A stretch of 63,070 nt of DNA, counting the filler, from Asterionella formosa (lineage: Eukaryota), in the NCBI GenBank assembly GCA_002256025.1. It is 12 parts of 12 records of this genome, joined end to end, with 100 filler letters (N's around TTAATTAATTAA, not from the genome) between each part and the next. Parts side by side here need not be neighbours in the genome. Positions count along the whole stretch, not along the records: positions 17,526 to 34,924 come from NKIB01004444.1; 11 more parts are not named here. One strand, given 5' to 3'. Made by a program: the position numbers and the translations under genes. Below the pieces are notes generated by a model. It worked only from the letters and a program-made list of their open reading frames with translations. It was not told where the DNA came from and did not search any database. This document shows positions 1 through 46,375 of this stretch, in pieces (within the stretch, counting starts at the first letter, position 1; every line of letters begins with the position of its first letter).

Positions 1-9
1 GAGTGTCAA

Positions 10-4791: not shown

Positions 4792-5559
4792 GCAATTAAC
4801 ACGTCAAACTTCGATGTACACGATGAATCAAAGAAAACCGTAAATTGTTCCTAACTAAACTGCGGGCAAGGGGAAAGAGCCTTTGAGTGAGAACCATAGA
4901 AAACAATTAAATTAAAAAGAAGAAAAAAGAAGATTCGACGATGGGATCTAAAAAAATCGACAAGTACGAGAAGAGACGATTGCATTCCGATTGAAAAGTG
5001 ACGTGTAACAGTACCAGGTAGTCTTGGAAGAAAATCTCGTGACGAGCAGGTTGTTAGCCAATCAGCGAACTCCATGATGATACCACGCAGCAGCTTTGGA
5101 TATCGTCGAGAAATCCCGATGTTGAGCAATGTTCGCATCTTCACTTTCCAACGTTGGCAAGTGAGGATGTAGATCCAAGAACAGTTGATTCAGGCTGAAG
5201 CGTTTTCCATTTTGAATTGCTAAAGAAAGAGACTTCCGCTAGATGGATTTTGACAATATCGCTTTGCAAAATAAGCTTTCGAGAATGGAACAAATCCGTT
5301 GCTTCACTCTTCTTTCATTTGGTCCTTGTTCAATATCCACTACATCTGAATTTTCATAATCAACGCAATTGAAGTCTTACCTCACCTGACTTCTTCGTCG
5401 TCGTCAACCAAGCTATCATTTATGTGGGGAGAGCGATGTGTTGTTGGTTTGTGACCTCTGAGTGCAGCTGGTAGTGCAAACGTGCCAACCTGGTGCCAGG
5501 TACAGATTTCATATTCAGTGAACCGGTACCTATCTTACATACGGAGTGGGAGTATGCCA

Positions 5560-5655
5560 CCGCTACCTGGAACCAAAGTAAGGTACCCTGGTACCAGGTA
5601 CCAGGTACTTATTTACTACCAGGCTACTAGGTACCTGGTACCAGGTACCAGGCAC
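5560..5655. repeat. Palindromic CCTGGTACCAGG/GGTACC cluster
   Basis: e.g. GGTACCCTGGTACCAGGTACCAGGTAC and GGTACCTGGTACCAGGTACCAGG. Confidence 0.85.
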
Positions 5656-5666
5656 CCTAGAACCTG

Positions 5667-5754
5667 CAGGTTGCGGTCATTTTGCTTAAACTAACATTTT
5701 AATCTGGGATAAAGGAAGCTAACTCTTTAGTATCAGCAAAATTACCGCAACTTC
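5667..5754. mobile_element. ~88-bp MITE-like element, copy 1
   Basis: TIRs GTTGCGGTCATTTTGCT / AGCAAAATTACCGCAAC. Reverse-complement copy at 36641-36724 and a lone TIR at 62491-62511. Confidence 0.75.
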
Positions 5755-5834
5755 CTCGTCTCTCGTATCCCCCCATATACCGGTACCTGTACCTGTTTTG
5801 CAACCTCAAAAGGGACGACATCGGAGGCAATAAA

Positions 5835-6880: not shown

Positions 6881-7279
6881 ATGGTGGTTACAACATGGAA
6901 CAGCACTCCTCCGTTGTCTCCTGGCAGCAAGGGATCATCAGCTATTGGATCGCAAAGCTCAAGGATTCCACGTAACCAAGCACCTCCTGGAGTCACAGCT
7001 AACACTGAGCCTGATGAATCTGTTGCAAGAAGGCACCTCCACTTTCCCTTGCACATTGAAGAATATAAATTTTTATGTGTATCTCGTGCTTCTGCAACAG
7101 GTACAGAAAGCGGTACATTCCTGCCTCCTGGAAGGTCCGGTAATCAGCGAATTGCGCACACTATATACTAAAAATTCCACATAGCGGTTTCAACTTACTT
7201 CATTGGAAGTCTGTCCGGCTCACCAATTCCGAAATTATGAAAATCTCAATTTATTTCAATTTATTTAGATTACCTGTAA

Positions 7280-7898
7280 CCGTTACAACAAACTTTCAAA
7301 CGGAAAAGCGCTGCCACATTTCACCGCAGAATCGCTGACTACCAACTTCAACTTGCTGACTGCGGACTTCTTGTTGCTAACTGCTGACTTGATTTGCTGA
7401 AAATTTGAAATATGCGCTGACTGCTGACTGCTAACTTCAACATGCTGACGTCAAACAAGCTACTTTGTACATAGGAAGAGACTGACTACCGTTACCGGTC
7501 TACGAATCGTGTCTACTTTTCATATTAGAATAACAATGGAAACACATCATCTTTTTGTTGTTGGGATACTAAAAGCGATGCCTTCTACGTTCATACTAAA
7601 GTATCGGGAGTAACATAGACATACCTGGTACCTGGTACTCCGTATATGATAATAAACTGTGAAATCGACATTGATGCCTAAAACAATTCATTGCTATCTA
7701 CTTTGTGATATTGCTACCACCATGTACCGGTAATATTGTAAAAATGCTGACTTCAACTTGCTAACTACTGACTGCTGACTTGATTCGCTGAAAATTTGAA
7801 AAAATCGCTGACTGCTGACTGACTTCTTTTGCTGACTGCTGACATGAAATCGCTGACTGCTGAGTTCAAGTTCATTTTGACAATAAAACGTGTAACGG
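7280..7898. mobile_element. Putative non-autonomous element with two subterminal (GCTGACT)n arrays
   Basis: Related arrays at ~7333-7449 and ~7745-7872. Bounded by the short inverted pair CCGTTACA (7280) / TGTAACGG (7891-7898). Confidence 0.5.
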
Positions 7899-10559
7899 CT
7901 TAACGTCTATGTAAACGACTATTTAAAGAATATCGGAGTGGCGCAAAATCTAGGGGTTTGACAATTTTTGGAATTATACCCCTTCCTTTTTCTTGCACAT
8001 GAGTTGATGAACAGAAAACGAGCAACCTGCACGCTATGTGTGCTGATTACTGGACCTTCCTGCCTCTATGGAAACACTCCCATTATACTTCCACAACCCT
8101 GCTCATTTAAATGATGTATCATTGGTATATCCTCTACCTGGTACCAAACACCATGCAAATGTTGTCAGTTACCGAAATCCGAAACTTGGATACAGAGGAA
8201 GCACGATCCATGAATAAGGCTCTAGGGTATACTACTTTAAATAAGCGAGGCAACCACATAAAGAAAAGTGTATCAAGTTCCGGATCGAAATTTTCAATTC
8301 AAAAACGGTTGGTTACATGGTTTCATATCAGATACATGCAAGACCAGGTGAAAGTGAATGGCATGCATCCTATTTCGCTTTCCCACCATAAGTGGAGCAG
8401 TGCAAAAACTGCTCGGCTTGTAGAGATTATGATTGATACTAGCCATGCATGTTGCAACCAAGGATTGCTTTACTCCACCAACCTGCCATCCGAGGAGAGA
8501 TTGATGGGGCTCCAGGTGGGTCCATCACGTTTTGTGGGCAAAAGGGTTGATTGATGGCAAAACAATATTTTAATGCACTTTAACCGGATGGGAAGATGCG
8601 CATGAAATCGTCAAACTTGATTCAAGTTGAGACACATCATGTCAAGAACATGCACTGTCTCCATGAAAGAGAAAGTAACGATTAGCAAAATGGCTGGGAC
8701 CAAGCTTGGAGATGAGGTCAGCTTGACACCGAAATGTTATGCAGAAACTGCTGGAGGGATTTGAATATATGTTTGCCTGTACCAAAAATGTCACCAATTA
8801 AGGAAAAACAGGGAAGAGCAATGGATTTCATGGGAAGTATTAGATCATGTCTATCAGCGGAAGTGATATTGATTTCTATGATGCGAAAATTTTCAAGGCA
8901 AGCTCATCAGCACATATTGGCTTACCATGCCATGCCACTGACTCTGGCCAATTCAATTAAGCACTACAGCAGCAGTGTTATCAGCATGTTCCAGTGGCAA
9001 TCGAAGATATTGTAAAGAAGATCTACTAGAGACATGTGCATCAATGTGCCTTGGACTTTGATTACAAGCTTGTAATAAATGTCAATTGATTGGCTGAGTG
9101 ATTGCTGATTCTTGTAGTGTGATGGCAAACATTGTATACAAATGTTGAGGATAAATGACTACTGTTAGCAGACAGAAGTATAACTAGTGGTACTGCAATG
9201 ACTGCACAGTTTGCATGACCGACAATCATGATGAATTCCATGGAACAAGAAGGTCAGTTCAGAAGAATACATGCGGGATTCGTAAATGGAATAGCAATTC
9301 CTACAGATCAAGTCCAACATGCAAGATTAGGTTGTAAGACTGAAACGAATTTCGAATTGGTATGAAATCGACCAATGAGAAAGAGTGAATTGAGGTGAAG
9401 GACAAGTCCAAGAAAGCAAGATCAGTTTGGTAAGACCAAGTAATTTGGCAAGATTGATAGAACAGAAAACTGAAGTAATCACAACATTAGAAAAGGCAAA
9501 TCTAAAAAAGAATTAAAGTGTTGTCGAACTACTAGCTAGTGGAGAACTAGTACTGGACACTGGACATGTAAGTACTATCAAGGAGATCTGGAACATCTCA
9601 ACATAAATATATGAATCGATATATTTTTACTTAGAATATTCTCTATGTTCACAATCAATCTGCTATCAGACAGTCATTGATTTCTTCATGGCTTCTTCTG
9701 TGTTACAAACAGGGCGACTGATGATGATGATGATGAACGAAAATGTACATAACTTTTGCTAGACATCATCCTTCGAGGAAACTTAAATACATGAACAATT
9801 CTTTTTTTCGCACCTAATATTCCTAGCAAATTTCCCATCACCATGGAGCTCACATGTTGTTGCTTTTCTATTGTTCTCGTTGCGCTCAGCCCCTTCAAGG
9901 CCCGGTTAAAGTATTGTCATTGTCTGGAGAAGTAAGAACATCTCCTTGAAGGGTCTACTGCACATTATGACATTAGTTTTGACAAGCTTCACATTTGTCA
10001 GCACTGATACCTACATCTATGACTACACAAATTGCAAATATTGATACGATCAATCAATTATGAGTTAATGAATAACTCATTTCAAATCTTTTGCTTCAAT
10101 TAATCATGCTATTGTATTATTTGTTGTATTGTCTGTTGTGCAGCTACGATATAGTGACAAATCTTCTCTATCATTATTTTAATAACTGTGCATTTCGAAA
10201 TTACATGAAAAATGTGTTATCGGCGACTTCAATTTTCGTTGTCAATATTAGTGTTATTAGAATAATTAAAAATCTTATGTCTTGCTTGATGGATGTGTGA
10301 AATGAGAAAGTGTTGTTCTTAATGTTTGTGGAGATAATCTCTTTTTTGTCATGGTCAATATTGAGAGGACATGATGAAGGATTCTCCAGCCACTCACCAT
10401 GACTACTTATACTTTAGCTTTTTCTATTTATTAAAAAACTGCACTCTGAGTGAGCTTGAATCCAGCCATACCTCATGTGAGGCATCCAGGTCTTACATAC
10501 CCCATGTGATGGGTTTGCTAATGGTTTGTGGCAAGATTTTGAATAAGATTTTAAGCTCT

Positions 10560-16167: not shown

Positions 16168-17082
16168 TCTGCCTGTTCGAGAAAATGAAATTCAAGTTTG
16201 GTCAAACTTTCAATTGACCTGGAATGAAAGCTAGACCCCGATCAATTCAAAAGATTTGTCTCTTTACTCATGAAGTGTAGAAACCAATTTATGGGGCAGG
16301 CCGCACGCTTGCTTGGGATCAGAGGAAGGCTCGTACTCGGAACGCAATCGGGCCTGTTCGTTGCAAGGAGAAAGGTTGTAAGTTAAAAGGGCAACTCGAG
16401 AAACGAAGTGAGACTAGCATGCCGTTTTGAGCTGAATCCAGCAATCTCCTTGATGAATAATTACACAGTTCGGTAAAGCGTATATGCTTTCGAATGTCAG
16501 CATGATAACCTTGTCATTGGCCTCGATGACATTTGGAAACCTTATCCATCATTGTACTGTCAGATCTATACCCTGTATTGAATTGACACCTTGACTAACT
16601 TGACTAAAAACAACAATACTAGTGTCTACCATGGACCTACGGGACCAAACACATCAAGGTTCAACTCTTCAACTGAGCCACCATGGCCAACACCCTTGCA
16701 TCGTATGCCGTACCTTGTGTAATGTAATGTTGTAATAAGGTCAAACAAACCAACGTTTCAACTCGTCGACGCGATGGGAAGAGGTGTCAAATGTACGGCG
16801 AAGAAAGATCACCTTACGTGGAGCTTGGTAATAACTCTACTAAAGTGGAATCGAAGAAGTTCCGCTGTCCAACGAATTATTGCTTCCTGCTTTGGCCACA
16901 GACGGGAACCACGAGAACTCCTCTTTTGTCCTCAAATTATATAACGAGGACCGGAAGATATTGAGGGTCACGTGACAGTTATTTGCGCTAACGCTGCGGA
17001 GCACTCCATCGAACTCGGCCGAAATGCGTTCTTCTTGGACGACGAAGGAAAATTGATGTCAGCCAGGAATAAAATACCGTCG

Positions 17083-17293
17083 TACCTGGTACCATACCCT
17101 GGTACCTGGTACCAGGTACTCCGGAGTACCTGGTACTGGCACCTGGTACCAGGTACCAGGGAGTACAACCTGTGTGATACAAGGGTACCTGGTACCAGTA
17201 CCAGGTATTTAGTGACGGTACTTGGTACCTGGTACCTGGTACCAGTGCTGGTACCAGGTATATGGTTGTCAACGGGTACCTGGTACCAGGCAC
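17083..17293. repeat. Largest palindromic CCTGGTACCAGG/GGTACC cluster, between divergent CBP and RRM genes
   Basis: More than ten GGTACC sites in about 210 bp. Confidence 0.9.
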
Positions 17294-17425
17294 CGGTGTT
17301 TAACGCCTGCTATGTTCCGGTTCCTCTGTGAAGGATGCGGTTAAATGACAAATCAGTGTGATGAACACATGCATACCACTCGGTAAGTAGAAATTCTAGT
17401 TTACTGGACAAACATAAACGGAGTA

Positions 17426-17525: not shown

Positions 17526-17847
17526 GGTACAGTACTGGTAGGCTCGCTCCATGTTAGTTTCACTTCCAGGTTCTTGGGAGTCGTCCTCGTGCACCACAGT
17601 CCAGCCGCCCCCATGCTGTGGTGGCGATGATGACGGCAGGCCGGCCGGCAGCGTTAGATTTCAAGCTCCACGTGGAGGAGTGTAACAAATGTGCGTCAGC
17701 CAACCACAAATTCTTCTATCGAAAGGTCTCTTTGGAATCATCGATCTAAAAATAACATCAGCATCATTGAGCACATCAACGTTCGCCAAGAAATACCGGT
17801 ACTCTCACACACACACAAAACATTTCCATTCCAACCCAATTTCACTC

Positions 17848-18645
17848 ATGCGCCTCTCATTTTTGCTTGCATTGACGTTGTCGTCCCTGCCATCGCTGAC
17901 GTCCGCCTGGGTCGTCAGTGGCAGCGCCGTTAATCGTCCAGCAGGAGTAGTAGGGCAACGAAGCGCCTCGTCACACAAGTTACACATGGCCCTGAATTAC
18001 AACGACCCTGTCGTCGCTGAAGAATTCGCCAAGGTCCAGCCTCTTGATTTCGATGAAGTGGAAGCTGAACTCCTTCAATCTGGAATTCGAGCTCCTCCGA
18101 CAATGAATGATATGGAACTCAAGCTGATGCTGGTAGAAGTTCGAATGCGCGCTGCTGGAAAAATGCCGGGCCAAAATGTTAAGGCTCCCAAGCCCACCAA
18201 ATTTAATTCCAAGTTCGAAGAAGCTCTCTACACCAAGCCAGCCTTTGAAGCATTTTACAATGGTCTCAAAAGCAAGGGTGATCATAACGCTATGAATGTG
18301 GCTTCTGAATATCTCAATGATCCGGTCTTGGCCACTCAACGGTATGGCAAGGACTATAAGGCAACGATTCGAGAATTGACCAAGGCGATGAACGCTGCAG
18401 CCCCTGTCACCTCGGCCAAGCTGACTTTTTCAGGATTTCCAGCAAATATGGGAGAAGCCGCTTGCAGAATGACTTTGGAAGCTGTGGGTGCTATTGCTGA
18501 CTTTCAGTGTGCCGAGAGTGAAGATCTTCCTGTCTTGACTGGAACTGTCACGTTTGAAGACATTGAAGATGCCAAAAAGGCAGTCAAACAATACAATGGG
18601 ATGGACATGGGGATGGGTACCAAGTTGGAGTTGGCTAGTGTGTAG
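17848..18645 (+). CDS. Probably plastid-targeted protein with C-terminal RRM domain
   Basis: Signal peptide MRLSFLLALTLSSLPSLTSA|W plus Ser/Arg-rich transit region. C-terminus LTFSGFP...GTVTFEDIEDAKKAVKQYNGMDMG resembles RNP2/RNP1. Confidence 0.8.
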   Translation: MRLSFLLALTLSSLPSLTSAWVVSGSAVNRPAGVVGQRSASSHKLHMALNYNDPVVAEEFAKVQPLDFDEVEAELLQSGIRAPPTMNDMELKLMLVEVRMRAAGKMPGQNVKAPKPTKFNSKFEEALYTKPAFEAFYNGLKSKGDHNAMNVASEYLNDPVLATQRYGKDYKATIRELTKAMNAAAPVTSAKLTFSGFPANMGEAACRMTLEAVGAIADFQCAESEDLPVLTGTVTFEDIEDAKKAVKQYNGMDMGMGTKLELASV

Positions 18646-18891
18646 TGCTTCAACGAAAAAGTTAATTTTCCTTCGCGATCATATGGATGGGTTCCTATTA
18701 AATGGCCATGACTTGGAGACACAGAAACACAAAGATGAAAGAAAAAGGATGTTTGAATGCGTGATGCAATCAAAAAACAAGAATATCATGATGGCGCACT
18801 ATAATCTAGGCTAAGAATATACTATTAGGACATGCAAATGTTTGTGAGAAAAAAGTCCACTATTCGTCTTTTATTTGCTTCACGTTCAGAT

Positions 18892-21800
18892 CTAAAGGAT
18901 AACACGTTTCAAGTCGGATGCCAAGGATTTACACAACCCTGCATGGGTAGACTTTATATCCACCTTAACAACTGAATCCTTCACTTTGAATAATACTCGG
19001 ACCTTTTGACCGCTCGATGAATTGGCTGCTAATGTACCAGCCAAGGGGCCAGAAATAGGCTCCACTTCAGCTGCTCTGAAAAAGGACTTTAAAACGGCCA
19101 TGACCTTGGTTGGATTTGTTTCTTTGAGTTCGATTTTGGTAGCACTGGACGTCCAGGAAGCAGACGAAAGGTCTGTCATGACGCCATCCTGCGTCAATCC
19201 TTCGGCTGGGCTCAAATGAAGACTAGCCGGGAGACTCAGTTTAATCGGTACTACGCTGCCGTCGGACATTGACAGAGCCCCTTTGAGTTCCAGTTCACAG
19301 TCCGATTGGTTCAACACAAAGGGTCCCGCCGAGCCCTCTCCAGAATTTCCTGCAGAAATGGATCCAAATACAACAGAATCCGATCGCCCTTTCCAAGAAA
19401 TGGACAAGTTGTCGAGAGTCCTCGGACTAAAATTGTCGGCCCTGAAGGAAAGAGAGGCAGCCGATGCTGACCCGGAGACCTTGTAGTAAACATTTACATT
19501 TGACCAATTTAAAGAGCCCTCCCCTTTTTCTACCTTAAGGACAGCTTGCATCCAAGGTCGCTTTTTTGAGATCGATAATGTTGACTTTTTTGTGGTTTTC
19601 ATACCAATCATTGGGTCTGCAGATGGCAACGATAGAGTAGGTGCAGATAAACCGAGCAAATCGTCAAATGCAGTGCTAATTGCATTGCCATCGGAAGAAC
19701 CAAAGGTAGTCGCAACTGAATTTCCAAGGCTAACAAGGCTAACGAACGTAGATTCAGGTTGCGCAACTGATGTTGTTTCACCAGACATTGTCATGCCGGA
19801 AAAACCGAGCAAGTCACCAACACCACCTCCACTCGACGGTGATTCCTTGGTTCCCTTTTTGCTGGCTTTTTTCTTCTTCTTCGCCTTCGCTTGTTTCTCC
19901 GCTTGGACGTGGGCATTCTGATTGCGTTTCTCCGGCACAACACGGTGCTTTCGTTCCGGCATTTTTTCGTCTTCACCAAGTGGCGTAGTTAAATCAACTG
20001 CTGCAAGTCCAGATGGTGTCCTTTTGGAGGTGTTATTTAGTATTCCAAGGAGATTGTCCCTATCATCATCCTCGTCGTCATCGTCGAACATAACAGACAT
20101 CGGAGTGTTCTTTATTGACGAAACAACAGGAGCAGATGGTCCTGGATTCGAAAAGATGGACATATCAGCCAGTGTTGTGTCTGCACTTTTGCTAGTTTTC
20201 TTTGCCTTCTTCTTCTTTTTCTTCCGTTTCATATCCGTTTCCTCATCACCTTCGTCACCACTGTCCAAAAGTTGGATGGTACCAAATCGATAGGAGCTAT
20301 CGGTGCCAAGGTCATTCGAAGAATCAATGGCTGAAGAATCCAAATAGAAAGGGTCCTGAGAGCTTTTTGTTTGATTGAGTCCACTTGATTCTCCTCCAAT
20401 TTCGAACATACCACTTCGCTGAAAACTAGTCGTGACTGACGCTTGCGTTGTCTGATGGTCGCTTGACCCGGATCCGCCGAAACCTGATACATCCATCATT
20501 GGTTTGGATTCAACTGCAGGTGTGTTCGACATGAGTCGCTGCTGGGTAAAACTCACTTGTTCCAAACCCGGTTTCTGACTTGTTTCTGTCATCATGCTAT
20601 CGAAAATGGATAAGTCGACTGCGGCATCTAGATATTCTTGGGAGAGACCAATGGGCGCATGTCGCTTTTTGACTTGCGCCTTGGCACTTACGGGCTTCAT
20701 GGCTTCGGCTTTGAATAAATAATTGAGAAGAGAGGAAGAAGAACGGCAGCGGGCTCCAAGAGATCCAGGTGTAGTTTTGCTTTTCGGTGACGTTGCTTTG
20801 TCCATGGTCCCCATCCCCAATAAATTGATATCGTCATCAGAATCCTCTTCGTCCATGTGCATAATCGAAGGTGGTCCATCCGAAACTGATGGCATTAACG
20901 ACAAGTTCCGCAATAGTTCATGAGACGTAAATGATCGTTCTTGGACTTCAACATCCAACGACGACATATAAACGGGCAAATTATGAACTAAGGTCTCCAA
21001 GCAAGCAATCAATTCTGTTTCTGACTGTGACTGGCAAGCTGCAGCAAAAACCTTCATCGCATTTTGCAAAAAGACAGCTTGTGTTGTTGTGGGAAGCAGC
21101 TGCGAATTATTCGTCGCAGTCAACGATTTAATCAACGCGTGGTATGTTCCTTTGCTTCCATTGTTTAGACTCTGGTGCTTCTTGGCATCAATTAAATCAG
21201 AGTATTCCCCGACAATCCATGCAATTGCAGGCAAAACTTGCGGGAGAATCTGCTTCTCGTGATCTTTTTCTAACAAAATGGTAACGGACTTCTCGACAGC
21301 GTAGCCTCTTACAGGCAAAACGCGCAGGGCCACGTCGGTTACTTGTTTTTCCAATTTGAGAGCGAGGTCGTCGCCTAATGAGCCCATGTGCGAAAGGTTC
21401 AATAAAACATCTAAATACCATCCAAAGTCGGCCAGCAAATTATATTTGTCACCAGAGCAAAGATCGATGATCTTGATGACCAAATCACGTTGGTAATCTC
21501 CACTTGCCAGGTCCACGTGCTGCAAAAGTTGGCCTACCAATTCCGGTAAATTCTTCCGGCTCGCCATGCCCTTTAATAAATCAAGTGCTCTCGTTCGAAT
21601 TGTGACATCATCGTCGGAAAGGCAAGCAAGAATAAGTGGCCGAGCATCAGATCCTTGAAGCGCTTTTGGCATGCTATCGAGTAAGCTGCAAAATCCAACC
21701 AGACCAAGGTATTTTAAATTTTGATCTGCTTCCTGGACGAATCCTTTCAATGTTGTATGACAAAGTTCAATCACTTGTGGCATATTTGTTGGCATGGTGC

Positions 21801-22659
21801 CATCCGCCTTGCGACAGTACGGTAAACAGAGAGTGATGGTATACACAGCTTCGTACAGCAACGACTTGGCTTGCGTTGATGTGACGATTTTGGAGAGCGG
21901 CTCCAACAATTTACGTGCCAATCGAGGTTCTTCTGGCACCAGACTCCCTAACAACTTCACGACCTTGATGAGCATCCAATTGTTTTGAGAGTTCACCAAT
22001 AGTTGGAAAAAAGCCGGGGCCAGGGGTAAGTAATTTTTTGGATTTTGCTCAGCTAATTCCGTCACAACATTGACTGCACAGCTAACAACGGATGGGTTTG
22101 AATCCTGTAAGGCTTGCTGAATCTTATCAAAGGTAAGTCTGAGTCCCTGCGGATATTTTAGAAAGGTCTTGTACAAGCACAATAGGGCCTTTTTTCGAAT
22201 GTAGGGCTGTTGATGATTAAGCAACGACGTTAGCTCTGGTAGCAAGTCCCGCGCCAGGTCTTCCGTGACAATGTTGGAGATGCAATTAATAGCAAGGCCT
22301 GCTTCGTACATGCCGCCTTCTCCAGAGGCCACTCGCAATTCTTTCTGTAGCAAGTTGGTACACAGCAAAATAACTTCGGTGTCTTGTGTAAACCCTTGCG
22401 ACGCAGATAAATATCCAATGCGTTTGTGCGCAAACCGCGGCGAGGACATGACTTCAATGCTGGCAAAGCTAGCCCAGCTCATGGAATACCCCATGGACTG
22501 CAAAAATGTGAGCTTGTTGAGTGCATTGGCCTTGACGTACAGATCCGTCGAATTGATTTCTTGCTTGATTTCAGCAATGCATTGTGAAATGTAGAGGGCT
22601 GTGTCTCGTTTCGATGCACGAATACCCTTGACAACGTCGGTCAGCGTCTTTTCAAACAT
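18892..22659 (-). CDS. AP3D1: AP-3 complex subunit delta
   Basis: MFEKTLTDVVKGIRA, FASIEVMSSPRFAHKRIGYL, LAEQNPKNYLPLAP, NNWMLIKVVKL. Intronless, 1255 aa. Confidence 0.95.
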   Translation of the reverse strand: MFEKTLTDVVKGIRASKRDTALYISQCIAEIKQEINSTDLYVKANALNKLTFLQSMGYSMSWASFASIEVMSSPRFAHKRIGYLSASQGFTQDTEVILLCTNLLQKELRVASGEGGMYEAGLAINCISNIVTEDLARDLLPELTSLLNHQQPYIRKKALLCLYKTFLKYPQGLRLTFDKIQQALQDSNPSVVSCAVNVVTELAEQNPKNYLPLAPAFFQLLVNSQNNWMLIKVVKLLGSLVPEEPRLARKLLEPLSKIVTSTQAKSLLYEAVYTITLCLPYCRKADGTMPTNMPQVIELCHTTLKGFVQEADQNLKYLGLVGFCSLLDSMPKALQGSDARPLILACLSDDDVTIRTRALDLLKGMASRKNLPELVGQLLQHVDLASGDYQRDLVIKIIDLCSGDKYNLLADFGWYLDVLLNLSHMGSLGDDLALKLEKQVTDVALRVLPVRGYAVEKSVTILLEKDHEKQILPQVLPAIAWIVGEYSDLIDAKKHQSLNNGSKGTYHALIKSLTATNNSQLLPTTTQAVFLQNAMKVFAAACQSQSETELIACLETLVHNLPVYMSSLDVEVQERSFTSHELLRNLSLMPSVSDGPPSIMHMDEEDSDDDINLLGMGTMDKATSPKSKTTPGSLGARCRSSSSLLNYLFKAEAMKPVSAKAQVKKRHAPIGLSQEYLDAAVDLSIFDSMMTETSQKPGLEQVSFTQQRLMSNTPAVESKPMMDVSGFGGSGSSDHQTTQASVTTSFQRSGMFEIGGESSGLNQTKSSQDPFYLDSSAIDSSNDLGTDSSYRFGTIQLLDSGDEGDEETDMKRKKKKKKAKKTSKSADTTLADMSIFSNPGPSAPVVSSIKNTPMSVMFDDDDEDDDRDNLLGILNNTSKRTPSGLAAVDLTTPLGEDEKMPERKHRVVPEKRNQNAHVQAEKQAKAKKKKKASKKGTKESPSSGGGVGDLLGFSGMTMSGETTSVAQPESTFVSLVSLGNSVATTFGSSDGNAISTAFDDLLGLSAPTLSLPSADPMIGMKTTKKSTLSISKKRPWMQAVLKVEKGEGSLNWSNVNVYYKVSGSASAASLSFRADNFSPRTLDNLSISWKGRSDSVVFGSISAGNSGEGSAGPFVLNQSDCELELKGALSMSDGSVVPIKLSLPASLHLSPAEGLTQDGVMTDLSSASWTSSATKIELKETNPTKVMAVLKSFFRAAEVEPISGPLAGTLAANSSSGQKVRVLFKVKDSVVKVDIKSTHAGLCKSLASDLKRVIL

Positions 22660-23302
22660 AATCGAGCTAGGTGCTACGGAGATGGATGGAGGTGTGATCA
22701 GCAGTCAGGGAGATCAGCTGATTGAATTGAATTGAAAGCGAGGAAATCAATGGAGTGCTGAACTGCTTCCATTACAGTGTGCGGGATTCTACCGGTAGTA
22801 CCGGAATCCTGATGCTCATTGAAAGGTTTTCCTTCTGAATGATGCTGTGATAAGGATGAGGATGGCTGAGCGAAGGACGAGGAAGGCAAACTGAAGTTTA
22901 CGTAGATAATGTGCGTATGTACATACCGGTATATGCATACGGGAAATACCGGTAGTGGTGGGCCTGAGATTGTTCGGGGTAATACAGCATGACAATTTCT
23001 ATTTAAGGCTCGCTGGACAACATGTGCAGGCACGCTCAAGCCACATTACATCATGATAGTACTGGTACCAGTAAATATGCGATTGATGACTACCGGTATA
23101 TATTTTGCTTGAAATTAAAACTAAGAATATTGGTACATGATATTTAAAATGCTCTGCTATGTGCATCATGGTAAACTATCCAGTCTGCGTACCGGTCTCT
23201 GAAATTCCTTGAGCAATACTGTACAACCAGCGATATTTAAGGAACAAGTATTACATAATACAATGATGAGAATTCCACATCCATTCACTGATCCCCATCA
23301 TC

Positions 23303-25989
23303 ATGGAACCCGAAGCCACAGAAAAGCAAGCTGCCATCACTCCCGATGGTGACAAGGGTGCCAATGATGACACATCGGATAGAGCAGATGGGATCGTCAA
23401 TCCGGTTGAGGCTGAGATTGATGTTGAGGTTGGAGGTGGCATGGAAGTCATTTGCTTGAATGAATATCCCCTTGGGAAAGTCACACTTGAGCACATTATT
23501 TCCTTGATTGGAAGTTACGAAAATGAAGAAGCCATCTCCTCCAGAAGAACAAGAGTCCAGGAAGGAAAGGATGCAGTTCGGGCCTTTGCCTATGAGACCA
23601 TTCAGCGTATAATGATAGACACGGCAAGAACCAGAAACATGCAAATAAATGGGCAGCTTGTGAGAACATTTAAGGACTGCTTGTCCTCTTGGGCTCAAGA
23701 TGGTACCACCGACCAACAAAGATGCATTTACGAAATGACATACGGGTACTTTGATAGGAACCCCAAATGGGACCTTGAGCTAGAAAAAGAATTCATGCAA
23801 GATCGGAACCTTCATTATTGTGACAGTTCTATACATGATGAGGCTGCATCGAATAAGGAAGAAAACGCCAACAAAAGAGGCATTAAGGGTTGCATTGCTC
23901 GCCTGCTTGGAAGCGTTAAAATTGATTTGGTGAAACGGATTCGAAGGAAAGGGGAGCGAACACATGGTGTTTGCATCAATATAAGCAGAGACAATAGTGA
24001 AATTGACGATTCGAACCGGTACAGAAAGCGCAGAAAGGGAACAGAATTTCGTGTTGTGATGAAACAGAAGGTATGGTCAATATCATTGATTCAGTTTTCG
24101 AATAAGCTACTTTTACTCAAAATAACTGCGTCACTCCTAATTTACAGAAACCATGTATTGATAATAAAGATGGTGATGATGAAGGAGAAGCAGAAAGCGC
24201 CAATGGCTCGGAGGACCATGTTGGCGATGATAATGAAGAAAATGTCCCGGTTTCAGCAACTTGGGTCACCATCGGCAATCCTGCCCAAGTAAATGAAGAC
24301 GACGCCACCGATAGTTGTACCAGTAGTGACAGCGGAAAAGCAGTTATCCATAGGAATGAATATCCCAAGGAAAAAGTCACGGAGGCCCATATCATGGCGG
24401 TTTTTGGTGATATAGAAGATGAAGGAGTCATGAGAGACTTGATTGAACGGGTCAAGAAGGGAAAGGATGATGTAAGGACATTTGCATATGAGTCGGTTCA
24501 GCACCTTATGGTAGAGAATGCACGGGCATTGAAGATGGTGGTTGAGGGGAAACTCGTGAACTCTTTTGAGGACTGCATGTCATCTTGGGCCCGAGATGGC
24601 TCAAGTGCCCAACAACAACGAGTCTACGAAATTACCTATGGGTACTTCGATAGAAACCCCAAATGGGATATTGACCTAGAGAAGAAATTCATGAAGAATC
24701 GAAAGCTTCGCTATTGTGACGAGGAAATTTCTGTTAATGGTGCGGTGGGATTAACTTATGATGTTAACACCAAAGCTAAGGCCGGCAAGGGGTGCATCGC
24801 TCGCTTGATGGGAGATATTAAGATAGATTTAGTGAAACGTATCCGGAAGAAAGGAGAGAGAACCCACGGTATCTGTATCAAAATTAGCAGAGACAGTTGC
24901 GACATTAACAGCTCTAATCGATACAGAAAGCGTAAAAAGGGGACGGAATTTCGTGTTGTGGTGAAAGGAAAGGTAAATACAATGTCCTTTCACGTCATGG
25001 ACAATTAATAATGTGCTCAAACCCTTTACTTTTACTGCACAGAAGCCGGTAATCAGCGACGATGATTATGTGGACGATACAGAAGAATACACGGAAATTA
25101 TTCACCCCATTTTGGTCGGTGCTAATGTACCAGAATGCGTCGCAGCTGCCCATCCTGCTGACGAGAATACCGAAGCTGTTTTTATTTGTGAGGGTTGTGC
25201 TAGTGGAACTGAAGCAATCCGTCTTAACGAGTATCCTGTGGGAAAAGTCACAAAAGAACATGTCGTCTCCTTGATTGGTAATGACGAGGATGAAGAAGCA
25301 ATTTATCAAAGGTTAACACGTGTCCAGATTGGTAAAGATAACGTACGTTCATTTGCATACTCGTCGATTCGGCGTCTCATGGTTGAGAAAGCAAGGTCTA
25401 TGGCGATGGAGGTCGACGGGCAACTCGTGATTTCCTTAGAGGACTGCATGTTGTCTTGGGCCCAAGATTGCTCAAGTGCCCAACAACGATGCATCTATGA
25501 AATGACCTACGGATACTTCGACAAGAACCCTAAATGGGACATTGAACTAGAACAAATTTTCATGAAGGATCGAAAACTTCATTATTGTGAAAAGGCCGTT
25601 TCTCCGGATGCTAATTTCGAATTGATTCCTAATAAAAACAAGAACAGAAAGGTCATAAAGGGTTGCATCGCTCGCTTGATTGCAGATGTAAAGGCTGATT
25701 TAGTGAAACGGATCCGGTCGAAAGGACAGGGAAGCCACGGCGTTTGTATCAAAATCAGCCGAGAAAGCTCCGAAATCAACGACACGAATCGATACAGGAA
25801 GCGCAAAAGTGGGGACGAGTTATACATTGTTGTGAAAAGCAAGGTAAGGTCGATTTGCTCCGTCAATTCTGCGAGTTAAAAAATAAGTGGATTCCCTCAC
25901 CCTCCCAAAACTTCCCTCATTAGCCGACATCCCGTGAGACTGGGGAAGCGGAAGCGGTAGAATCCATAACATCGTCTGTAGCGTCTTAA
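23303..25989 (+). CDS. Unknown protein (~819 aa) with three tandem ~200-aa repeats. Exons 23303-24070, 24148-24972, 25043-25843, 25924-25989
   Basis: Three homologous ORFs joined in frame by phase-0 GT-AG introns 24071-24147, 24973-25042 and 25844-25923. The last exon is less certain. Confidence 0.8.
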
Positions 25990-26141
25990 GCGGAAGTGCA
26001 TGTAATGCACAGTGACTCATATAAGAAACCACTCGTTCGAGTGGTTAACTAATCTGAATTGGTGATTCTATTTCAAAATGGATGCAAGCCCTTTTTCATT
26101 ATTAGCCATCATTGCTTAATTTTCATAATACTCTATTCACC

Positions 26142-28333
26142 CTATTGAGTCGTCGCCTCAGTTGTTTGCTCCGTGCGAAGTTCAGGACTAGGAGTAAATC
26201 CCTCAACAAATGGTTTGTAAACTTGTCCGAAAATGCCAGGATCTAAGAACTTGTACATTGGATCTCGCATGGACGCTTCTTTCAACATATCCAAATGCTT
26301 CCCAACACCGTTCATAGTATTGGCGGCAATCACACCAGAGGCAGCTGCCGATGGAGTCCCAATACCAGGAAAGCAAGAATCACCACATCGGAGCAATCCA
26401 TCCACTGGAGTCTTCAAGTTAGGAAAGGGAAATGCCAAAATGTTCTTCAACAAGCCAGCATGAGGAGCAGAGGTTCCTGCAGCCCAGGCCATTCCATAAG
26501 TACCACGGTCTCGTCGCAGAAAGGCCTCATGAGCCAACGGGGATCCGATAATGCTAAATTCCAATCTATCTCTAACATCAGGGATGCATCGTTCCACAGC
26601 TTCCCACAATACCTTGGCGCGATCCTCCTTGTAGGCTTCATATTCTGGAGAATTAGGAGTGAGTTTCTCCCAAGGTTCATAGGGCTCTCCACCTGAAGAG
26701 TAGACATGGATGACATGCTTTCCTTCTGGGCACAAAGTCTTGTCCAAAAGCGAAGGAATAAAAAAAGAGCACAAGTTTTGCGAATCCTGGAGCGAACGTC
26801 CCCAATCCTGAACTACCAAGTGAGCTGGGTCCTTAATGTGGGAGAGATCCAAATCTTTTGCATCAATGGCTAAGAACAAATGCATAATGGCACCGTGACG
26901 AGGTAGTTTTCCGAGTTCGTCTCTCCATGTGGCAACACCTTCGGGGAGTTCTTGCTTATCTCCTGTGGATATAAAGTTAGGAGGCCATGAGCACGAATAC
27001 ATGGACGACACTCCAGATTTGATCAAAATACGTACCAAGCATCTTGACAGTATCAAAGGGAGTCGCGTTACTAACGACAGCTTTCTTTGCGTTTACAATC
27101 TTTCCATTCTTGAGTCTAACACCAACAGCTCGTCCATCCTTGACAATAATTTGATCGACATGAGCATTGAGTTGAATCTTTCCACCAAACTTTTCTAATC
27201 CTCGCACTAGAGTATTTCCCATTTCACACGTGCCCCCAATGGGTACAGAATAACATGCCGACTCTTCAAAGAATCGCTCCAGAATATACAACATGTGCGC
27301 TGTCATGGCTCCCTTGGCTGGGAACCCACAAAAAATGCACATTGTGTCGATGAAATTACGCAAAAAGGGAACAGTAACAATTTGATCGACCGTTTTGTGT
27401 AGAGAATCAAATGTCAGGGGCAAGTCGAGAAAGACATCGGGGTGGGTAAGGACAAATGGGAGCGAACCCGCTGTAGTGGCGAGAAAGCCAGCGTCTTGGC
27501 GCAGATTCAACAAGGAAACTGCTGTCGTGGAGCCTCCAAGAGTCTTTAGGCGTTTGCGGAGGTTGTTCCATTCCTGAAAGTGATGTGTTTGTATGCGAGC
27601 AGGGGTTATAAAAAAATCGACAGCTCCTAACATGGACCAGTCAACTTCAGCATTCGCCAGATATTACTGAAAGAAGCAGTCTTACCTGCACAGCCAGGGG
27701 CCCATCTTCTGCCTGCTCCATGAGCAGGTCTTCAAACTGGGATGCGCTTCCAATAGGAAATCTCCAGTATCCCGTCGGGGTCCAGTAGCCCAGCCCCGTG
27801 TAGGTCTTGACAGGCATTTTTTCCTCAAGGACGTCGAAAATCATACGCAATGGATTGAGCGAGGGTCGGTCCAGACCTTCGAAGATGCTGGGCCCGACCT
27901 CGAATGAATACTTCCCGCCATTGTGCATTCTCGAGAAGGTATGAGCGGATCCTCCGCACTTGATGTGCGATTCCAAGACCAAGACCTTGTCGCCATACTT
28001 GGCCGATAAGGCACCACAGGCAAGGCCACCCATGCCGGAGCCGATGACGATGACATCGTAGTCACCTGATTCTCCAGAGAGGCCGTTACCTGTTCCTGGA
28101 TAGGTGGGCTTCTCGTATTTGGGTTCGATGGACATATCGTAACTGAACGTCATGACTCTGTCACGCGATGTGTCGGTGGTTTGCGCCACATTTTGATTTT
28201 GTTCTTCTGTGGTCGACAGAAGTGAGGTGGCTATGCGCTGTTGCTTCACCAGGGCTGGGCGGACAGGACTGAATGCGTCCACTGAGAGAGCCGCTGTTGT
28301 CAGCGCAAGGAGCGCTGTAGTGAATCGCACCAT
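26142..28333 (-). CDS. Carotenoid isomerase (CRTISO)-like FAD oxidoreductase, plastid-targeted. Exons 28333-27686, 27573-27036, 26962-26142
   Basis: Signal peptide ...SVDA|FSP, Rossmann motif [18 protein letters not shown]-terminal [21 protein letters not shown]. Introns 27574-27685 and 26963-27035 are in frame. Confidence 0.9.
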
Positions 28334-30046
28334 GATGGTGAGGCGATATTGCGATATCGGCGCTTTCAGGCGAGCGAGCAAAACGAGAAAGTGAGGGACT
28401 TGAAGCGGCGTCGAGATCTTTGCACGAGGTCCACTTATTCTTCCTTCGTAGAGTCTACGAGCCTTGGCAATACTGCAACTTCAAGAATCCACTCTTTCAG
28501 TGGTAAAACGTCCTGATTATTCCAGCTGGAAGCACCAACCATGCACTGAGGAATTCTTGCTCAAAAATCCTCATAATTATATCCATCATGTATAATATTT
28601 CAGTTGTTCACCATACATAGGTGGTGGCCTTGAAGGGGATAAATGTTATTCTCCACTTCCTGCAGAATAGAGCATGATATACGTTAAAGTTGTGATTCTT
28701 TTGGGTGTCCTTTAATGAACTAGTAGCTAGGTTTTGAACTACTACCGGTAGTACTACATAGGTGTATGGTCCTGCTGGTATGCATGCATTCATATTACTA
28801 CCAAGTAAAACCAGACATGAGGGATTAGCAGTGCTAGAGTACCGTACTACCAGTACTCTATGCAAAGTTGGTTATTGGCCACAGTATGCTGCTAGTGTAA
28901 TGTAAGTGAATGAGCAAGGTAGAGTTGTCTGGGCCAATGAATCTACCTACCAGAAGCTTCGATGATTTCTCACAGGCAATGAAAAATTTAGTGCTTTTGC
29001 TAACAAGTTGTTAGGTATATAGGCTCCCATTCTCCTAGCTGAAATAATGGGATTCTTTTGTATATAGAAAACAATAGAGTGTAGCAGTAGACATTCTTGC
29101 AAGAGGCTGGAGAATCCTTCATCATGTTGTCTCAGCATTGACCATGATGGAAAAAGCGAATATCTCCACAAAAACTGCAAGTGAGGCTTACCTATTTGGT
29201 ACACATATAAATCACGACATAAAAATAGAATCATAAAAGGTTCATCCTAGTAACATTAAACCCCATGCTTCGGTTTCCTCAAATTTACACACACACACAA
29301 ATTGATTCACTTAGTTGGGGAGAGGACAATGATGGCGATTTTGACATTGCCAATTTCCATTGATCAAAAGGTCATTCCTATTGTCAGTCTTTTCCATAAT
29401 TTAAAACATGCAATGTTAATAAGGAGTAATTTATGTTCTTGGTTGAATCGGTTTCTATGATCATTTGATTTTCCTAATTTTTGCGCACTTGTGTGCCAGA
29501 AAATTAGTACAAGCCACATACTTAATTTTAGAGTGCATATAGTTATATCTGCTCCTGTAGTAGTATATTTTTTATGGTCTACAAGGTTTGGTCTTGCCAG
29601 AATTTCTGCAAGCCAACCACATCCTGTTATTTATTTGTGCATCATGATGAGAAAATTCATCACCCTCAGGCCGAAGAAAATGATTTTGGCAGAGGGATTT
29701 TCGAAGCCAAATAGTACCAGAGGAGCCTATTCTGGGCTAACTGAGCAGATGAGGCAATGGAGGACCATGTTTGCTTCCTTACCTGTTCCAGCAGGAGACG
29801 ACAGTGCAATCAACCAAATTGTCAGCTCTTGCAGCTTTCATCAAGCGAGTTTTCTGCACATCTAAAATATTTGGGTGTGTAGCTAGCACCAGATGTACGC
29901 TGAAAGAGACCTGAAGAGACAGGTGCATGGGGGAGGACTGAAGCATGGGATTTACGGTACTGGTACGGTCCCAGGTAGTGGTTCACGGTGTACGACTGCG
30001 TGACGTAGCAAGCTGTCTTTTACTCCGTACCACATCAAATTCGTTT

Positions 30047-30569
30047 NNNNNNNNNNNNNNNNNNNNNNNNNNNNNNNNNNNNNNNNNNNNNNNNNNNNNN
30101 NNNNNNNNNNNNNNNNNNNNNNNNNNNNNNNNNNNNNNNNNNNNNNNNNNNNNNNNNNNNNNNNNNNNNNNNNNNNNNNNNNNNNNNNNNNNNNNNNNNN
30201 NNNNNNNNNNNNNNNNNNNNNNNNNNNNNNNNNNNNNNNNNNNNNNNNNNNNNNNNNNNNNNNNNNNNNNNNNNNNNNNNNNNNNNNNNNNNNNNNNNNN
30301 NNNNNNNNNNNNNNNNNNNNNNNNNNNNNNNNNNNNNNNNNNNNNNNNNNNNNNNNNNNNNNNNNNNNNNNNNNNNNNNNNNNNNNNNNNNNNNNNNNNN
30401 NNNNNNNNNNNNNNNNNNNNNNNNNNNNNNNNNNNNNNNNNNNNNNNNNNNNNNNNNNNNNNNNNNNNNNNNNNNNNNNNNNNNNNNNNNNNNNNNNNNN
30501 NNNNNNNNNNNNNNNNNNNNNNNNNNNNNNNNNNNNNNNNNNNNNNNNNNNNNNNNNNNNNNNNNNNNN
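30047..30569. other. Scaffold gap (N run)
   Basis: Continuous N run. Confidence 0.99.
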
Positions 30570-30635
30570 TGACAACAACAACAACAAGAAGCACGTACTG
30601 CTCTGCTCAATTGATCGATCTTAGCCGCGAAGAAG

Positions 30636-32501
30636 ATGACAGTACTCTCCAAGAAATGGATGTTTTTGAGCACTGGCGCCTTGGCTCTCTGGAGTACCCA
30701 GGCCTTTTCTTCTATTGGGACGACGTATACGGGTTATTCACCGGCTCAATTGTCAGCTACTCAGCTGTACGGCATGTCGCGCAAGGCCCGTCGACAAATG
30801 GAACAAGAAAACAAAACGTACAAGGGCAGAGACAAGAAATTCAGAGATGCCATTGAGGACATTGAAGGCAACGCCAACGACGAAGACAGGATGCAGATCC
30901 CCAAAACGCCAGACTCCTTTGAAGACCCGAATCAAGAAGCCAATCGACAAGCTCGTCAAGCGGAGCTCGATAGACGAATGACCGACCGACCCGACGTCTC
31001 CACCATGTACATCGACGAGCAGACTGGGATTGAGATTATCCGACAGGGTCGCAATGTTATGGATATCATCACAAGGAAATCTGTTCAGCTCCTCCCGAAT
31101 CCAGAATATCGTCTTGCACAAATGTTTCCAGGTGTCCCTCCAGAGATACGCGCCAAGTATAGGTTCAATTGGGTCACTGTAGAGGTACCAGAAATGGTCG
31201 ACCGATTGCGCGAGGCGTGTACCGTTACCCTGGACGATGGCTCCAGAGGCATCCCACCTGCTCCTTCTGTCGCCAACAAGGCGCTTGACTTTTGTTTGGC
31301 AAATCGCGATCTCTTGGGTCATCGCATGAAGAAGACGCTCGGGAAACTCATGATGAGAGCTGCATGGCAGGAAAATGAACAGGAAATGAGAGACTATAGA
31401 GCGCTACTGCAGAATTTCCTCATTATGGAAAATTACATTTCGGCACCGTTTCGTCAAATTCTCATGTCGGCAGAGACCAAAGTTGGACCCAACTTTGGCA
31501 ATTTGGACTTGAGGAAGTATTGCAATGGCAGCGTGTACGAACGAACGGCCAACTATATTGTCCTCAAGGGCATGCAGTGCACATGGGAGAAGAAGGTTCG
31601 CGACGCGGAAGTCATTGAAAGTACCAAGGAGACTCCGCAAAATGTCCTCATCTTGGTGGGGACCGGCGATCCCCGTCGGTACATGCCCAAACCCGAGGTC
31701 TTGTACGAACTCAAGGATTGTGCCCAAGTTTGTGCCATGGCACAGAAAATGGTCAAAACATTTCGTGAGGACAGTGTCTTGTTCGATGATTTGCCTGTGG
31801 AGATTCGTTTCCTGGAATCTGCCTTGTCGATTCAAGGTGGCACCGCCTTGCGCAAATTTATTGTCGAAGACTTTTGTCCTGCTGAAGGCATTTCACCCCA
31901 GGGTCTTCGTGAAGGTATGCGTCGATTGGTGCAGCAGCTGGACAATATGTACATGGACCCCTATAGCGACATTCGTAATGTAGTTGACAGACTGGCTAAG
32001 GCCATGGCAGTGGGTACAGATGATGAGAGAAATCCATATGCTCCGTATTTGAGCGTAATTGGCGACAAGTCGCCAGCATACTTTGAGACCTATACATTCA
32101 ATCACCATCCGATGAGTTTAGTGAGATTTTTGGATGAAAAGAAGTTCGCAGGTGGTGCAACTCAGTATGATGCCTCCAAAGAGAAGAAAGATAGCAATCC
32201 TTTTGCTGCTGTGAGTGTTAATATTTTGACTAATAACTATGATTGATTTTGTCCATTCTGAGACTCACACATTTCCTTCGTTCCAAAGATGTTCAATCTT
32301 GGAGTCGAGGACCCCAAGATTGATCCCGTAGATCGAGCACCTGCCATGAACTATGACGATCCAGGTCTTTACAATCCACCAAAGCAACGAGCAGCTGGGC
32401 GTCCTCATGAGACGGGCTGGTTGGAAAAGTTACAAGGGTTGGATACTGAGAGCGATAAGTTTGGCTTCGTGGCGCCAGGAAAAATCATTTATGAAGACTG
32501 A
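30636..32501 (+). CDS. Hypothetical protein, probably plastid-targeted. Exons 30636-32210, 32289-32501
   Basis: Signal peptide ...ALWSTQA|F, Ser/Thr-rich transit region, long ORF, and in-frame intron 32211-32288. Confidence 0.8.
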
Positions 32502-32598
32502 CTAAGTGTGCTGACACGAGAAGCAAACGACATACAGTAGCCATAGCTCTAATACTAGAAACACTGAATATGAACTTGCAAAAAAATTATTTGGAAAT

Positions 32599-34783
<2,185 letters not shown>

Positions 34784-35024
34784 GGTTTTGTATTCGTATG
34801 CTTGTTAATAAGTGGAAGGAGAGACGACGACACCAAACGATGATGAAAGGACACAGGGCGACGAAGAAAGAACGATGTGATGTCCTTCACTTTGATAAAG
34901 GTGTGCTCGCGGGCTGATGATACANNNNNNNNNNNNNNNNNNNNNNNNNNNNNNNNNNNNNNNNNNNNTTAATTAATTAANNNNNNNNNNNNNNNNNNNN
35001 NNNNNNNNNNNNNNNNNNNNNNNN

Positions 35025-46109: not shown

Positions 46110-46375
46110 AATATGTTGCACAGATATTCTTGTATGTAAACGTATGTTCACGATTGATTTGAATTTTAATCATGGTGCCCATCATAGGGATTACCTACCG
46201 GTATATATGTAGCACACATATTTTTGGATGTAAACGTACGTACCAGTATGCATACGATTGATTTGAATTCAAATCATGTCCATCATAGTGACACCTATAT
46301 ACCGGTATGTTGCACAGATATTTGTATGTAAACGTACTACGTCTACGATTGATTTGAATTTGAATCATGCCTATG
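46110..46375 (+). repeat. ~95-bp tandem repeat, three copies
   Basis: TATGT.GCAC..ATATT..TGTAAACGTA...ACGATTGATTTGAATT..AATCATG occurs three times. Confidence 0.85.

Follow-up and report, generated by a model that had tools for sequence, protein, structure and literature searches.

The window analysed here is a stretch of 63,070 nucleotides, filler included, from the diatom Asterionella formosa (assembly GCA_002256025.1), made of 12 parts of 12 records joined end to end; its positions 17,526 to 34,924 come from NKIB01004444.1. At 23303-25989 on the forward strand lies a four-exon gene that is almost certainly a real spliced gene, with a joined frame of 819 amino acids (aa). Its first three exons each encode an acidic linker and one copy of a domain that ends in a basic tail (Table 1). 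All four exons have an open frame and a length divisible by three, and all three donors read AAG/GT ten codons past the basic tail, at an identical place relative to the domain. The repeats share 56-60% identity pairwise over 213-215 aa, with E-values of about 1e-80 to 1e-88 within the window. The original prediction, made from the sequence alone, had described one domain amplified across three exons, and this description is borne out in its open frames, in the common donor position, in the repeat motifs it quoted (present in exons 1-3) and in the stops it gave for retained introns (24292, 25008 and 25879). It had also called the exons symmetric phase-0 modules, which holds for exons 2 and 3 (0-0) but not for exon 1, which holds the ATG. 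The retention of CpG, which it had singled out, turns out to be unremarkable here: the observed/expected ratios of exons 1-3 (0.67, 0.89 and 1.2) resemble those of the neighbouring host genes (0.89 and 0.66) and are thus ordinary values for a gene at this place.

The gene is transcribed and spliced. All or part of the gene stretch was found in 12 public runs from lake, freshwater and algal samples, 11 of which are recorded as RNA. The junctions were examined in contigs of four runs from three studies, out of 14 runs listed, and six RNA runs with small or no word share were excluded from the counts. All three predicted junctions are spliced in four of four runs, and a single contig crosses the four exons in three of them, which rules out three separate genes or transcripts. 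The spliced 819-aa protein is also present in six database entries. It had been proposed that exon skipping would give isoforms with one, two or three domains; no skipping joint was found in any of the four runs, in contigs, which lose rare forms. The first RNA contigs on the exon 1 side start at 23207-23305.

One 135-nucleotide contig (24041-24175), in one of the four runs, keeps intron 1 at a depth of 24, against 52 for the spliced form and about 8 for intergenic sequence. This is at most a weak hint of intron 1 retention, and the retained form would stop at 24292 with one domain. Within 23263-23352, two out-of-frame ATGs lie 37-40 nucleotides before the start, and their short frame overlaps the main ATG; the contig start at 23207 is 5′ of both. 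At the other end (25989-26142), RNA contigs in all four runs do not stop within the 150-bp spacer but extend into the oxidoreductase gene, which is convergent; this suggests that the two genes have overlapping 3′ ends.

The three repeats are under purifying selection. The ratios of nonsynonymous to synonymous divergence (dN/dS) between repeats, a check proposed at the outset, are 0.26 (bootstrap range 0.16-0.40), 0.19 (0.08-0.30) and 0.44 (0.31-0.63). The synonymous divergence is lowest for copies 2 and 3 (0.68 vs 1.20 and 1.50), and the closest pair at the protein level is copies 1 and 3. Among the 16 coding variants found in other strains, those in the domains comprise four nonsynonymous and six synonymous changes (ratio of nonsynonymous to synonymous polymorphism 0.19; P = 0.01, binomial test), and those in the linkers and tail five and one. 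The four amino-acid-changing domain variants are located in loops and off the conserved columns, as read by eye from the alignment. No significant DNA similarity between repeats was found in the introns and linkers, so the breakpoints of the duplications cannot be placed.

Table 1. Features of the window and complete elements from metagenome contigs (window positions unless a locus is named)
Feature	Position	Strand	Remarks
Exon 1	23303..24070	+	ATG, acidic linker to 23446, domain copy 1; open, 256 aa
Domain copy 1	23447..24070	+	208 aa modelled, mostly helical
Basic tail, copy 1 (RYRKRRKG)	24017..24040	+	feature found family-wide
Intron 1	24071..24147	+	77 nt, GT..AG, phase 0; spliced in 4/4 RNA runs
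Exon 2	24148..24972	+	phase 0-0; acidic linker and domain copy 2
Domain copy 2	24343..24972	+	
Basic tail, copy 2	24919..24942	+	
Intron 2	24973..25042	+	70 nt, GT..AG, phase 0; spliced in 4/4 RNA runs
Exon 3	25043..25843	+	phase 0-0; acidic linker and domain copy 3
Domain copy 3	25214..25843	+	
Basic tail, copy 3	25790..25813	+	
Intron 3	25844..25923	+	80 nt, GT..AG, phase 0; spliced in 4/4 RNA runs
Exon 4	25924..25989	+	21-aa tail and stop
Adaptin large subunit (upstream host neighbour)	18892..22659	-	Adaptin_N, E 2e-101; divergent, ~640 bp away
FAD-dependent oxidoreductase (downstream host neighbour)	26142..28480	-	NAD_binding_8, E 1e-12; convergent, ~150 bp away
Palindrome clusters	5500-5800, 17070-17300, 22790-23200, 46000-46420, 50100-50300, 61800-62720		
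Complete CACTG-ended elements	L017, L019, L040, L048		one family, 6.4-6.7 kb
Complete CACTA-ended element	L087:193-8358		8.2 kb

The domain family and its predicted fold

In a full HMMER scan of proteins clustered at 50% identity, relatives of the domain were found in 347 clusters at E ≤ 0.001 and in 110 at 1e-10. Contrary to what had been supposed, the domain is thus not lineage-specific; the triplication alone is. Among 152 proteins examined, only six carry more than one copy: the 819-aa protein with three, and five Seminavis robusta proteins, representing three genes, with two each. A search for longer proteins yielded the 819-aa protein alone, yet it missed known relatives of 519 and 564 aa. 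In agreement with the view that the domain belongs to no known family, Pfam gave no match for the three exon products (E up to 5), and in 149 family members it matched neither the domain nor any TnpA-type family (E up to 0.01). A word-indexed homologue search returned the domain itself only, and searches of the ESM Atlas and a profile search of PDB sequences gave nothing useful. No match was found in prokaryote genome contigs or, at the protein level, in viral contigs; a single pattern match in a phage contig was judged to be chance from the list of open reading frames (ORFs) of that contig.

Copy 1 was modelled with AlphaFold2 from 94 sequences (predicted local distance difference test 94, predicted template modelling score 0.89). 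The model is nearly all helical, with long helices at residues 27-62 and 149-172. In the alignment W108 is invariant, and E113 (94%), M117, Y124, C149 (93%), K158 and H173 (90%) are nearly so. In a fold check of the kind that the original prediction had proposed, no solved structure matched the model: the best Foldseek hit in the PDB has an E-value of 0.7, viral models gave no useful match, and the best score in a wide structural alignment with VIA is Z 4.7. The lack of a match is no proof of a new fold. Among the VIA and Foldseek matches no chain with a helix-turn-helix is prominent, and the model has two very long helices. A homodimer prediction scored 0.00, with the alignment not used and the fold uncertain, and was counted neither for nor against anything.

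The basic end of the domain is conserved throughout the family. The net charge is positive for residues 147-174 in 92 of 94 sequences and for residues 175-200 in 91 of 93. A lysine or arginine is present at position 158 in 97% of sequences and at positions 163, 181, 191, 194 and 195 in 83-90%; with K163 and R181 at 86% each, basic residues are kept along the entire last helix as well as in the tail. This conservation fits the nuclear or nucleic-acid-binding role that had been suggested for the basic end, but it does not by itself establish such a role.

The three window repeats form one group in a quick, unrooted tree of 84 rows (support 99 in the Shimodaira-Hasegawa-like approximate likelihood ratio test). 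Their nearest relatives, P0006-P0012 and others, are at most about 38% identical to them. One of these, P0011, shares a Cys-rich C-terminal domain of the transposon type described below (E 3e-11).

Transposable elements that carry the domain

It is very likely that the domain family is transposon-borne. A scan of metagenome contigs with a degenerate pattern found at least 120 stretches, 80 of which were listed; 78 of the 80 match the domain profile, and the listed loci group into 31 families at 70% identity. In 15 of the 31 families an ORF of 1,030-1,170 aa lies upstream of the domain gene, in tandem or divergent. Among the listed loci it is found in 13 of the 15 families with at least 1.5 kb of upstream sequence and, where the upstream sequence reaches 3 kb, in all 12 families. 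Counted by locus, it is present in 19 of 22 at 3 kb, and the three loci without it come from families that have the ORF at another locus. Pfam gave no transposase match for 12 of 12 such ORFs. The structural model of the ORF matches RAG1 (VIA Z 14.6, root-mean-square deviation 4.7, 474 aligned residues; Foldseek E 6e-7), followed by Transib and P-element transposases. Its Atlas neighbours include Plavaka (0.93) and Transposase_21 (0.90) clusters, with PF18759 (Plavaka) in 35-100% of members. Judged from its modelled fold and these neighbours, the upstream ORF is a RAG1-fold DDE transposase of the CMC type.

Both CACTG/CACTA terminal inverted repeats were found inside five of the 37 loci of at least 3 kb, in two families; most of the other loci are too short to hold both ends. 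In the three elements examined for this, L040, L048 and L087, each end has one 9-mer 11-17 times per 500 bp, in both orientations, and the 9-mer differs between families. The clustered end repeats of the elements are 9-10 bp long. The five complete elements (Table 1) are two-gene CACTA/EnSpm elements of an apparently undescribed lineage. They come from aquatic metagenomes, and their transposase frames are open, yet unrecognised by Pfam. Downstream of the domain, a chromo-like segment is present in 15 of the 22 families with at least 1 kb of downstream sequence, by a profile that was seeded from these same data and gave several weak matches; two ORFs pass the Pfam Chromo cut-off. A Cys-rich segment is found downstream in nine of the 31 families. 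The three-domain form is absent from all 78 transposon-type loci.

The intron that follows the domain looks older than the window gene and appears to have been inherited from the transposon gene. The best-scoring donor after the domain was predicted, without an RNA check, in the 20 of 31 families whose domain ORF ends at most 80 aa past the domain within the contig (11 were excluded). It is in phase 0 in 19 of the 20 families, which share ancestry, compared with 40% in equal windows within the domain (P = 3e-7). Using the intron-side bases only, the counts are 16 of 20 and 31%. If the donor was inherited in this way, the phase-0 symmetry of the window gene needs no special explanation, since tandem duplication of any stretch that includes the domain and its intron would keep the frame.

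The window itself has no transposase profile match, no pair of CACT ends that closely brackets the gene, and no chromo-like or Cys-rich segment after it. Exon 4 occupies the place of the linker, chromo-like and Cys-rich exons of the transposon gene. Four pairs of CACT ends matching at 13 of 16 positions span 22-55 kb of host genes and were taken as chance. Without transposase and element ends, the locus is a derivative rather than an element. Elsewhere in the genome, at least three domain fragments were found, together with transposase pieces on at least three contigs. These copies have stops or frame changes or are partial, and the domain and transposase pieces are not adjacent. The broken transposases of the same family are located at G000:C553:21600-24080 (L136/L137), on C5593 (L138) and on C12692 (L139); in L138, two perfect 16-bp CACTG/CACTA inverted pairs (680-5648 and 850-5476) flank the transposase fragment. 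The window gene is thus the single intact and expressed copy found, and it combines the lack of mobility features with purifying selection; these copy numbers are lower bounds.

Origin and role of the three-domain protein

The window copy has probably been domesticated, and what had been a side guess, a domesticated transposon domain, is now our preferred reading. We lean slightly towards the full form of it, in which the window gene is a domesticated and triplicated CACTA accessory domain with a TnpA-like role. It would stem from a lineage of CACTA/EnSpm (Plavaka-like) DNA transposons in diatoms, by way of their second, accessory gene. In relatives this gene lies beside the RAG1-fold DDE transposase, between repeat-lined CACTG/CACTA ends, and would run from the domain through a phase-0 intron and a low-complexity linker, often to chromo-like and Cys-rich, zinc-finger-like domains. 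One copy in this genome would have shed its element ends along with the transposase and the C-terminal domains. The unit of linker, domain, donor and intron may then have been duplicated twice in tandem, in a sequence of events that we reconstruct only provisionally, and the inherited phase-0 intron would have preserved the frame. What results is a single protein of 819 aa whose transcript is constitutively spliced and which is under purifying selection. That the domain binds DNA seems reasonably likely. Each copy could recognise a short DNA motif through the basic C-terminal helix and the lysine/arginine tail, as TnpA does, and three linked domains would allow avid binding of clustered motifs. 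The protein might act in the nucleus, where it would regulate either transposon ends or host sites that have motif clusters.

We hold a wider reading more tentatively, as a possibility to be taken as a whole. In it, the domain is a new kind of DNA-binding fold that serves diatom CACTA elements as a non-homologous substitute for TnpA; the chromo-like and zinc-finger-like partners let the element read its own end repeats and host chromatin marks; and the result is a three-headed regulator of transposon ends or host promoters here and, separately, a two-headed, Tudor-fused one in Seminavis.

Several observations weigh against the preferred reading. The domain model matches no known DNA-binding domain in Foldseek or VIA, the basic tail could simply be a nuclear localisation signal, and the transposase, with its N-terminal Cys/His region, could itself bind the end repeats. 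No transposase is present in the available contig DNA of 16 of the 31 families, including F4 and F5, which have 1.6 and 3.0 kb of upstream sequence. A target-site duplication was found in only one of the five complete elements (L040, a 2-bp match that could be due to chance); when multi-copy elements are assembled from metagenomes, flanks from different insertions may be merged. The quick unrooted tree does not fix the direction of transfer between host and transposon, and the subclade of the nearest relatives (P0006-P0012 and others) has no member of known transposon context. Finally, a weak search found no orthologue with conserved neighbours in other species.

The same transposon origin could have given a domain that binds the transposase or histones, with the basic tail as a nuclear import signal and the triple protein as a scaffold or decoy for transposon or chromatin proteins. 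We consider this unlikely. Residues 10-141 weakly resemble histone-fold chains (TAF8, Z 4.5, root-mean-square deviation 3.5, 78 aligned residues), and about ten histone-fold rows are among the 50 VIA matches, but all these Z scores are below 5 and lie under the usual chance level for the structure library. The fusion partners are of the chromatin-reader type (chromo-like in 15 of 22 families, Tudor in Seminavis), and maize TnpD and TnpA are described as interacting (PMC1636069); the conserved basic residues, however, span the whole last helix (K158 97%, K163 86%, R181 86%) and not just the tail. An enzyme or metal site formed by C149 and H173 together with E113, with chromatin or DNA as its target, is barely credible despite the conservation of these residues (93%, 90% and 94%) and the fact that other Plavaka-type accessory genes are reported to be enzymes (10.1101/2025.02.11.637652). 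The model puts C149 and H173 at opposite ends of one 24-residue helix, which is too distant for one site in a monomer, and neither Foldseek nor VIA matched an enzyme fold.

The direction of the transfer and the present state of the gene can be questioned as well. An old diatom host domain of chromatin or transcription could have been captured by CACTA elements, in which case the window gene was never mobile. The subclade of the window repeats has no member of known transposon context, Seminavis has Tudor-fused members, and genes of host type (DnaJ, DOT1-like and HA-domain ORFs) are indeed taken up by these elements. Against this capture from the host, which we regard as quite unlikely, the transposase-linked families occupy both halves of the tree (six and nine of 15), P0011 has a transposon-type C-terminus and decayed copies are present in this genome. 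Furthermore, the named members among 20 clusters looked up come from Seminavis robusta only, unlike what is expected of a conserved single-copy host gene in diatoms that have been well sequenced. It is more improbable still that the gene is a stranded transposon gene without host function, whose repeats diverged within a mobile element and which is transcribed and not yet decayed. Selection within an element could account for the dN/dS between repeats, and no phenotype is on record. The element ends and transposase are nevertheless gone and the spacers are just ~640 and ~150 bp, strain variants avoid amino-acid changes in the domains (P = 0.01), the one intact copy contrasts with relatives that are broken in every case found in this genome, and the three-domain form occurs in none of the 78 transposon-type loci.

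Comparison with known systems and neighbouring features

At Spm ends TnpA binds family-specific motifs that are densely clustered, and it needs this clustering; it binds with two tandem three-helix helix-turn-helix motifs, in a DNA-binding domain derived from transposase helix-turn-helix motifs and reported to be restricted to flowering plants (10.64898/2026.08.24.746577). Like plant TnpA (maize TnpA; Arabidopsis TnpA-Spm1), the diatom accessory gene is the second gene of a CACTA-ended element, apart from the DDE transposase, and as in plant En/Spm the element ends carry clusters of short motifs specific to each family. The domain has a splice junction and disordered linkers at its borders, as described for TnpA DNA-binding domains (10.64898/2026.08.24.746577). 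Unlike TnpA, which we compared by description, the diatom domain has no helix-turn-helix match above chance and no Pfam match, and the elements join it to chromo-like and Cys-rich domains. DNA binding is established for TnpA and would be predicted for the diatom domain. The diatom gene may be called TnpA-type by analogy, from its position and architecture; with no sequence match, the term does not extend to membership of the TnpA family.

The elements are similar to Plavaka elements in their kind of transposase and in having accessory genes tied to chromatin: the red-algal Plavaka (EnSpm) elements carry the accessory genes PAG1-3 and the fungal ones TET/JBP, and Plavaka repeat arrays have been proposed as self-binding sites (10.1101/2025.02.11.637652). 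The accessory domains described there (methylase/SET; ParB-like and 2OG-oxygenase) were not matched in the diatom domain. PAG1 is described as having no known domain. The diatom elements are 6.4-8.2 kb long, compared with 17-19 kb for Plavaka elements (10.1101/2025.02.11.637652). Non-plant CACTA elements are described with 2-bp duplications and unrelated accessory proteins (PMC1636069). The EnSpm accessory genes of Ectocarpus are said to be mostly of unknown function (PMC12477816), and the account of EnSpm elements in the diatom Cyclotella is a list with no gene-level description in the parts concerned (PMC7466962). In a literature search that left subscription papers and Repbase outside, we found neither the domain nor any accessory gene of diatom CACTA elements described; the elements may already be among the diatom EnSpm entries of Repbase.

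Three Seminavis robusta genes (P0112, P0191 and P0201) encode the domain twice in tandem, along with a Tudor domain and DUF6824 repeats (CAB9531459.1, CAB9521973.1 and CAB9514479.1). The copies share 20-27% identity with the window repeats and 34-36% with each other, so they result from a separate duplication, with Tudor and DUF6824 added. They may represent a second, independent domestication. The domesticated Harbinger second-ORF proteins ALP2 and HDP2 are Myb/SANT-like. As is proposed for the window gene, they are host genes that go back to a DNA transposon with two genes, and to the one of these that does not encode the transposase; they come from another superfamily, have another fold and are kept alongside a transposase-derived partner. 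In the window gene, by contrast, the domain is tripled, and only broken transposase copies were found in the genome.

The domestication of transposon accessory genes is known, and what is new is the undescribed domain that underlies this case. At least 347 unannotated protein clusters can now be assigned to the accessory gene carried by a CACTA lineage of diatoms, with the strength given above for its transposon origin. An accessory domain of different structure in diatoms would mean that a solution beside TnpA had arisen a second time, independently. The window gene would also be a clean case in which a transposon's own phase-0 intron allowed the in-frame multiplication of a captured domain. 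Transcription and silencing factors of diatoms are poorly known, and the family could be one of their sources. The domain is confidently modelled without a solved look-alike, and candidate target motifs come from the same elements, which makes binding directly testable.

Among the host neighbours of the gene (Table 1), we take the adaptin to be AP-3 delta-like, and the oxidoreductase is presumably carotenoid-isomerase-like. Intergenic palindrome clusters of TGGTACCA (26 copies) and TACCGGTA (30 copies) occur in the window, including the promoter of the domain gene. A tie of the domain to the GGTACC/TACCGGTA arrays was considered and none was found, the arrays being rare in transposon loci; TGGTACCA occurs four times in 310 kb of transposon loci vs 26 times in 63 kb of the window.

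Other genes recur beside the domain or transposase genes in the metagenome loci: DOT1-like methyltransferase ORFs (E ~1e-9) in L038, L047 and L053, DnaJ-domain proteins in L032, L054 and L066, and HA-domain proteins of about 440 aa in L025, L064, L073 and L083. A Harbinger origin, hinted at by a fragment in L004/L007, was dropped, since the partner transposase is modelled with a RAG1 fold and the elements have CACT ends. In L007, beside a decayed domain copy, the end of an ORF (2-331, reverse strand) recalls the N-terminus of a Harbinger-type transposase, as we presume without Pfam support, and a Copia-type integrase fragment lies at 6926-9996 on the forward strand (rve, E 2e-7). The DOT1-like ORF of L047 lies within its own 32-bp inverted repeats (2668-5792) and is perhaps a nested element.

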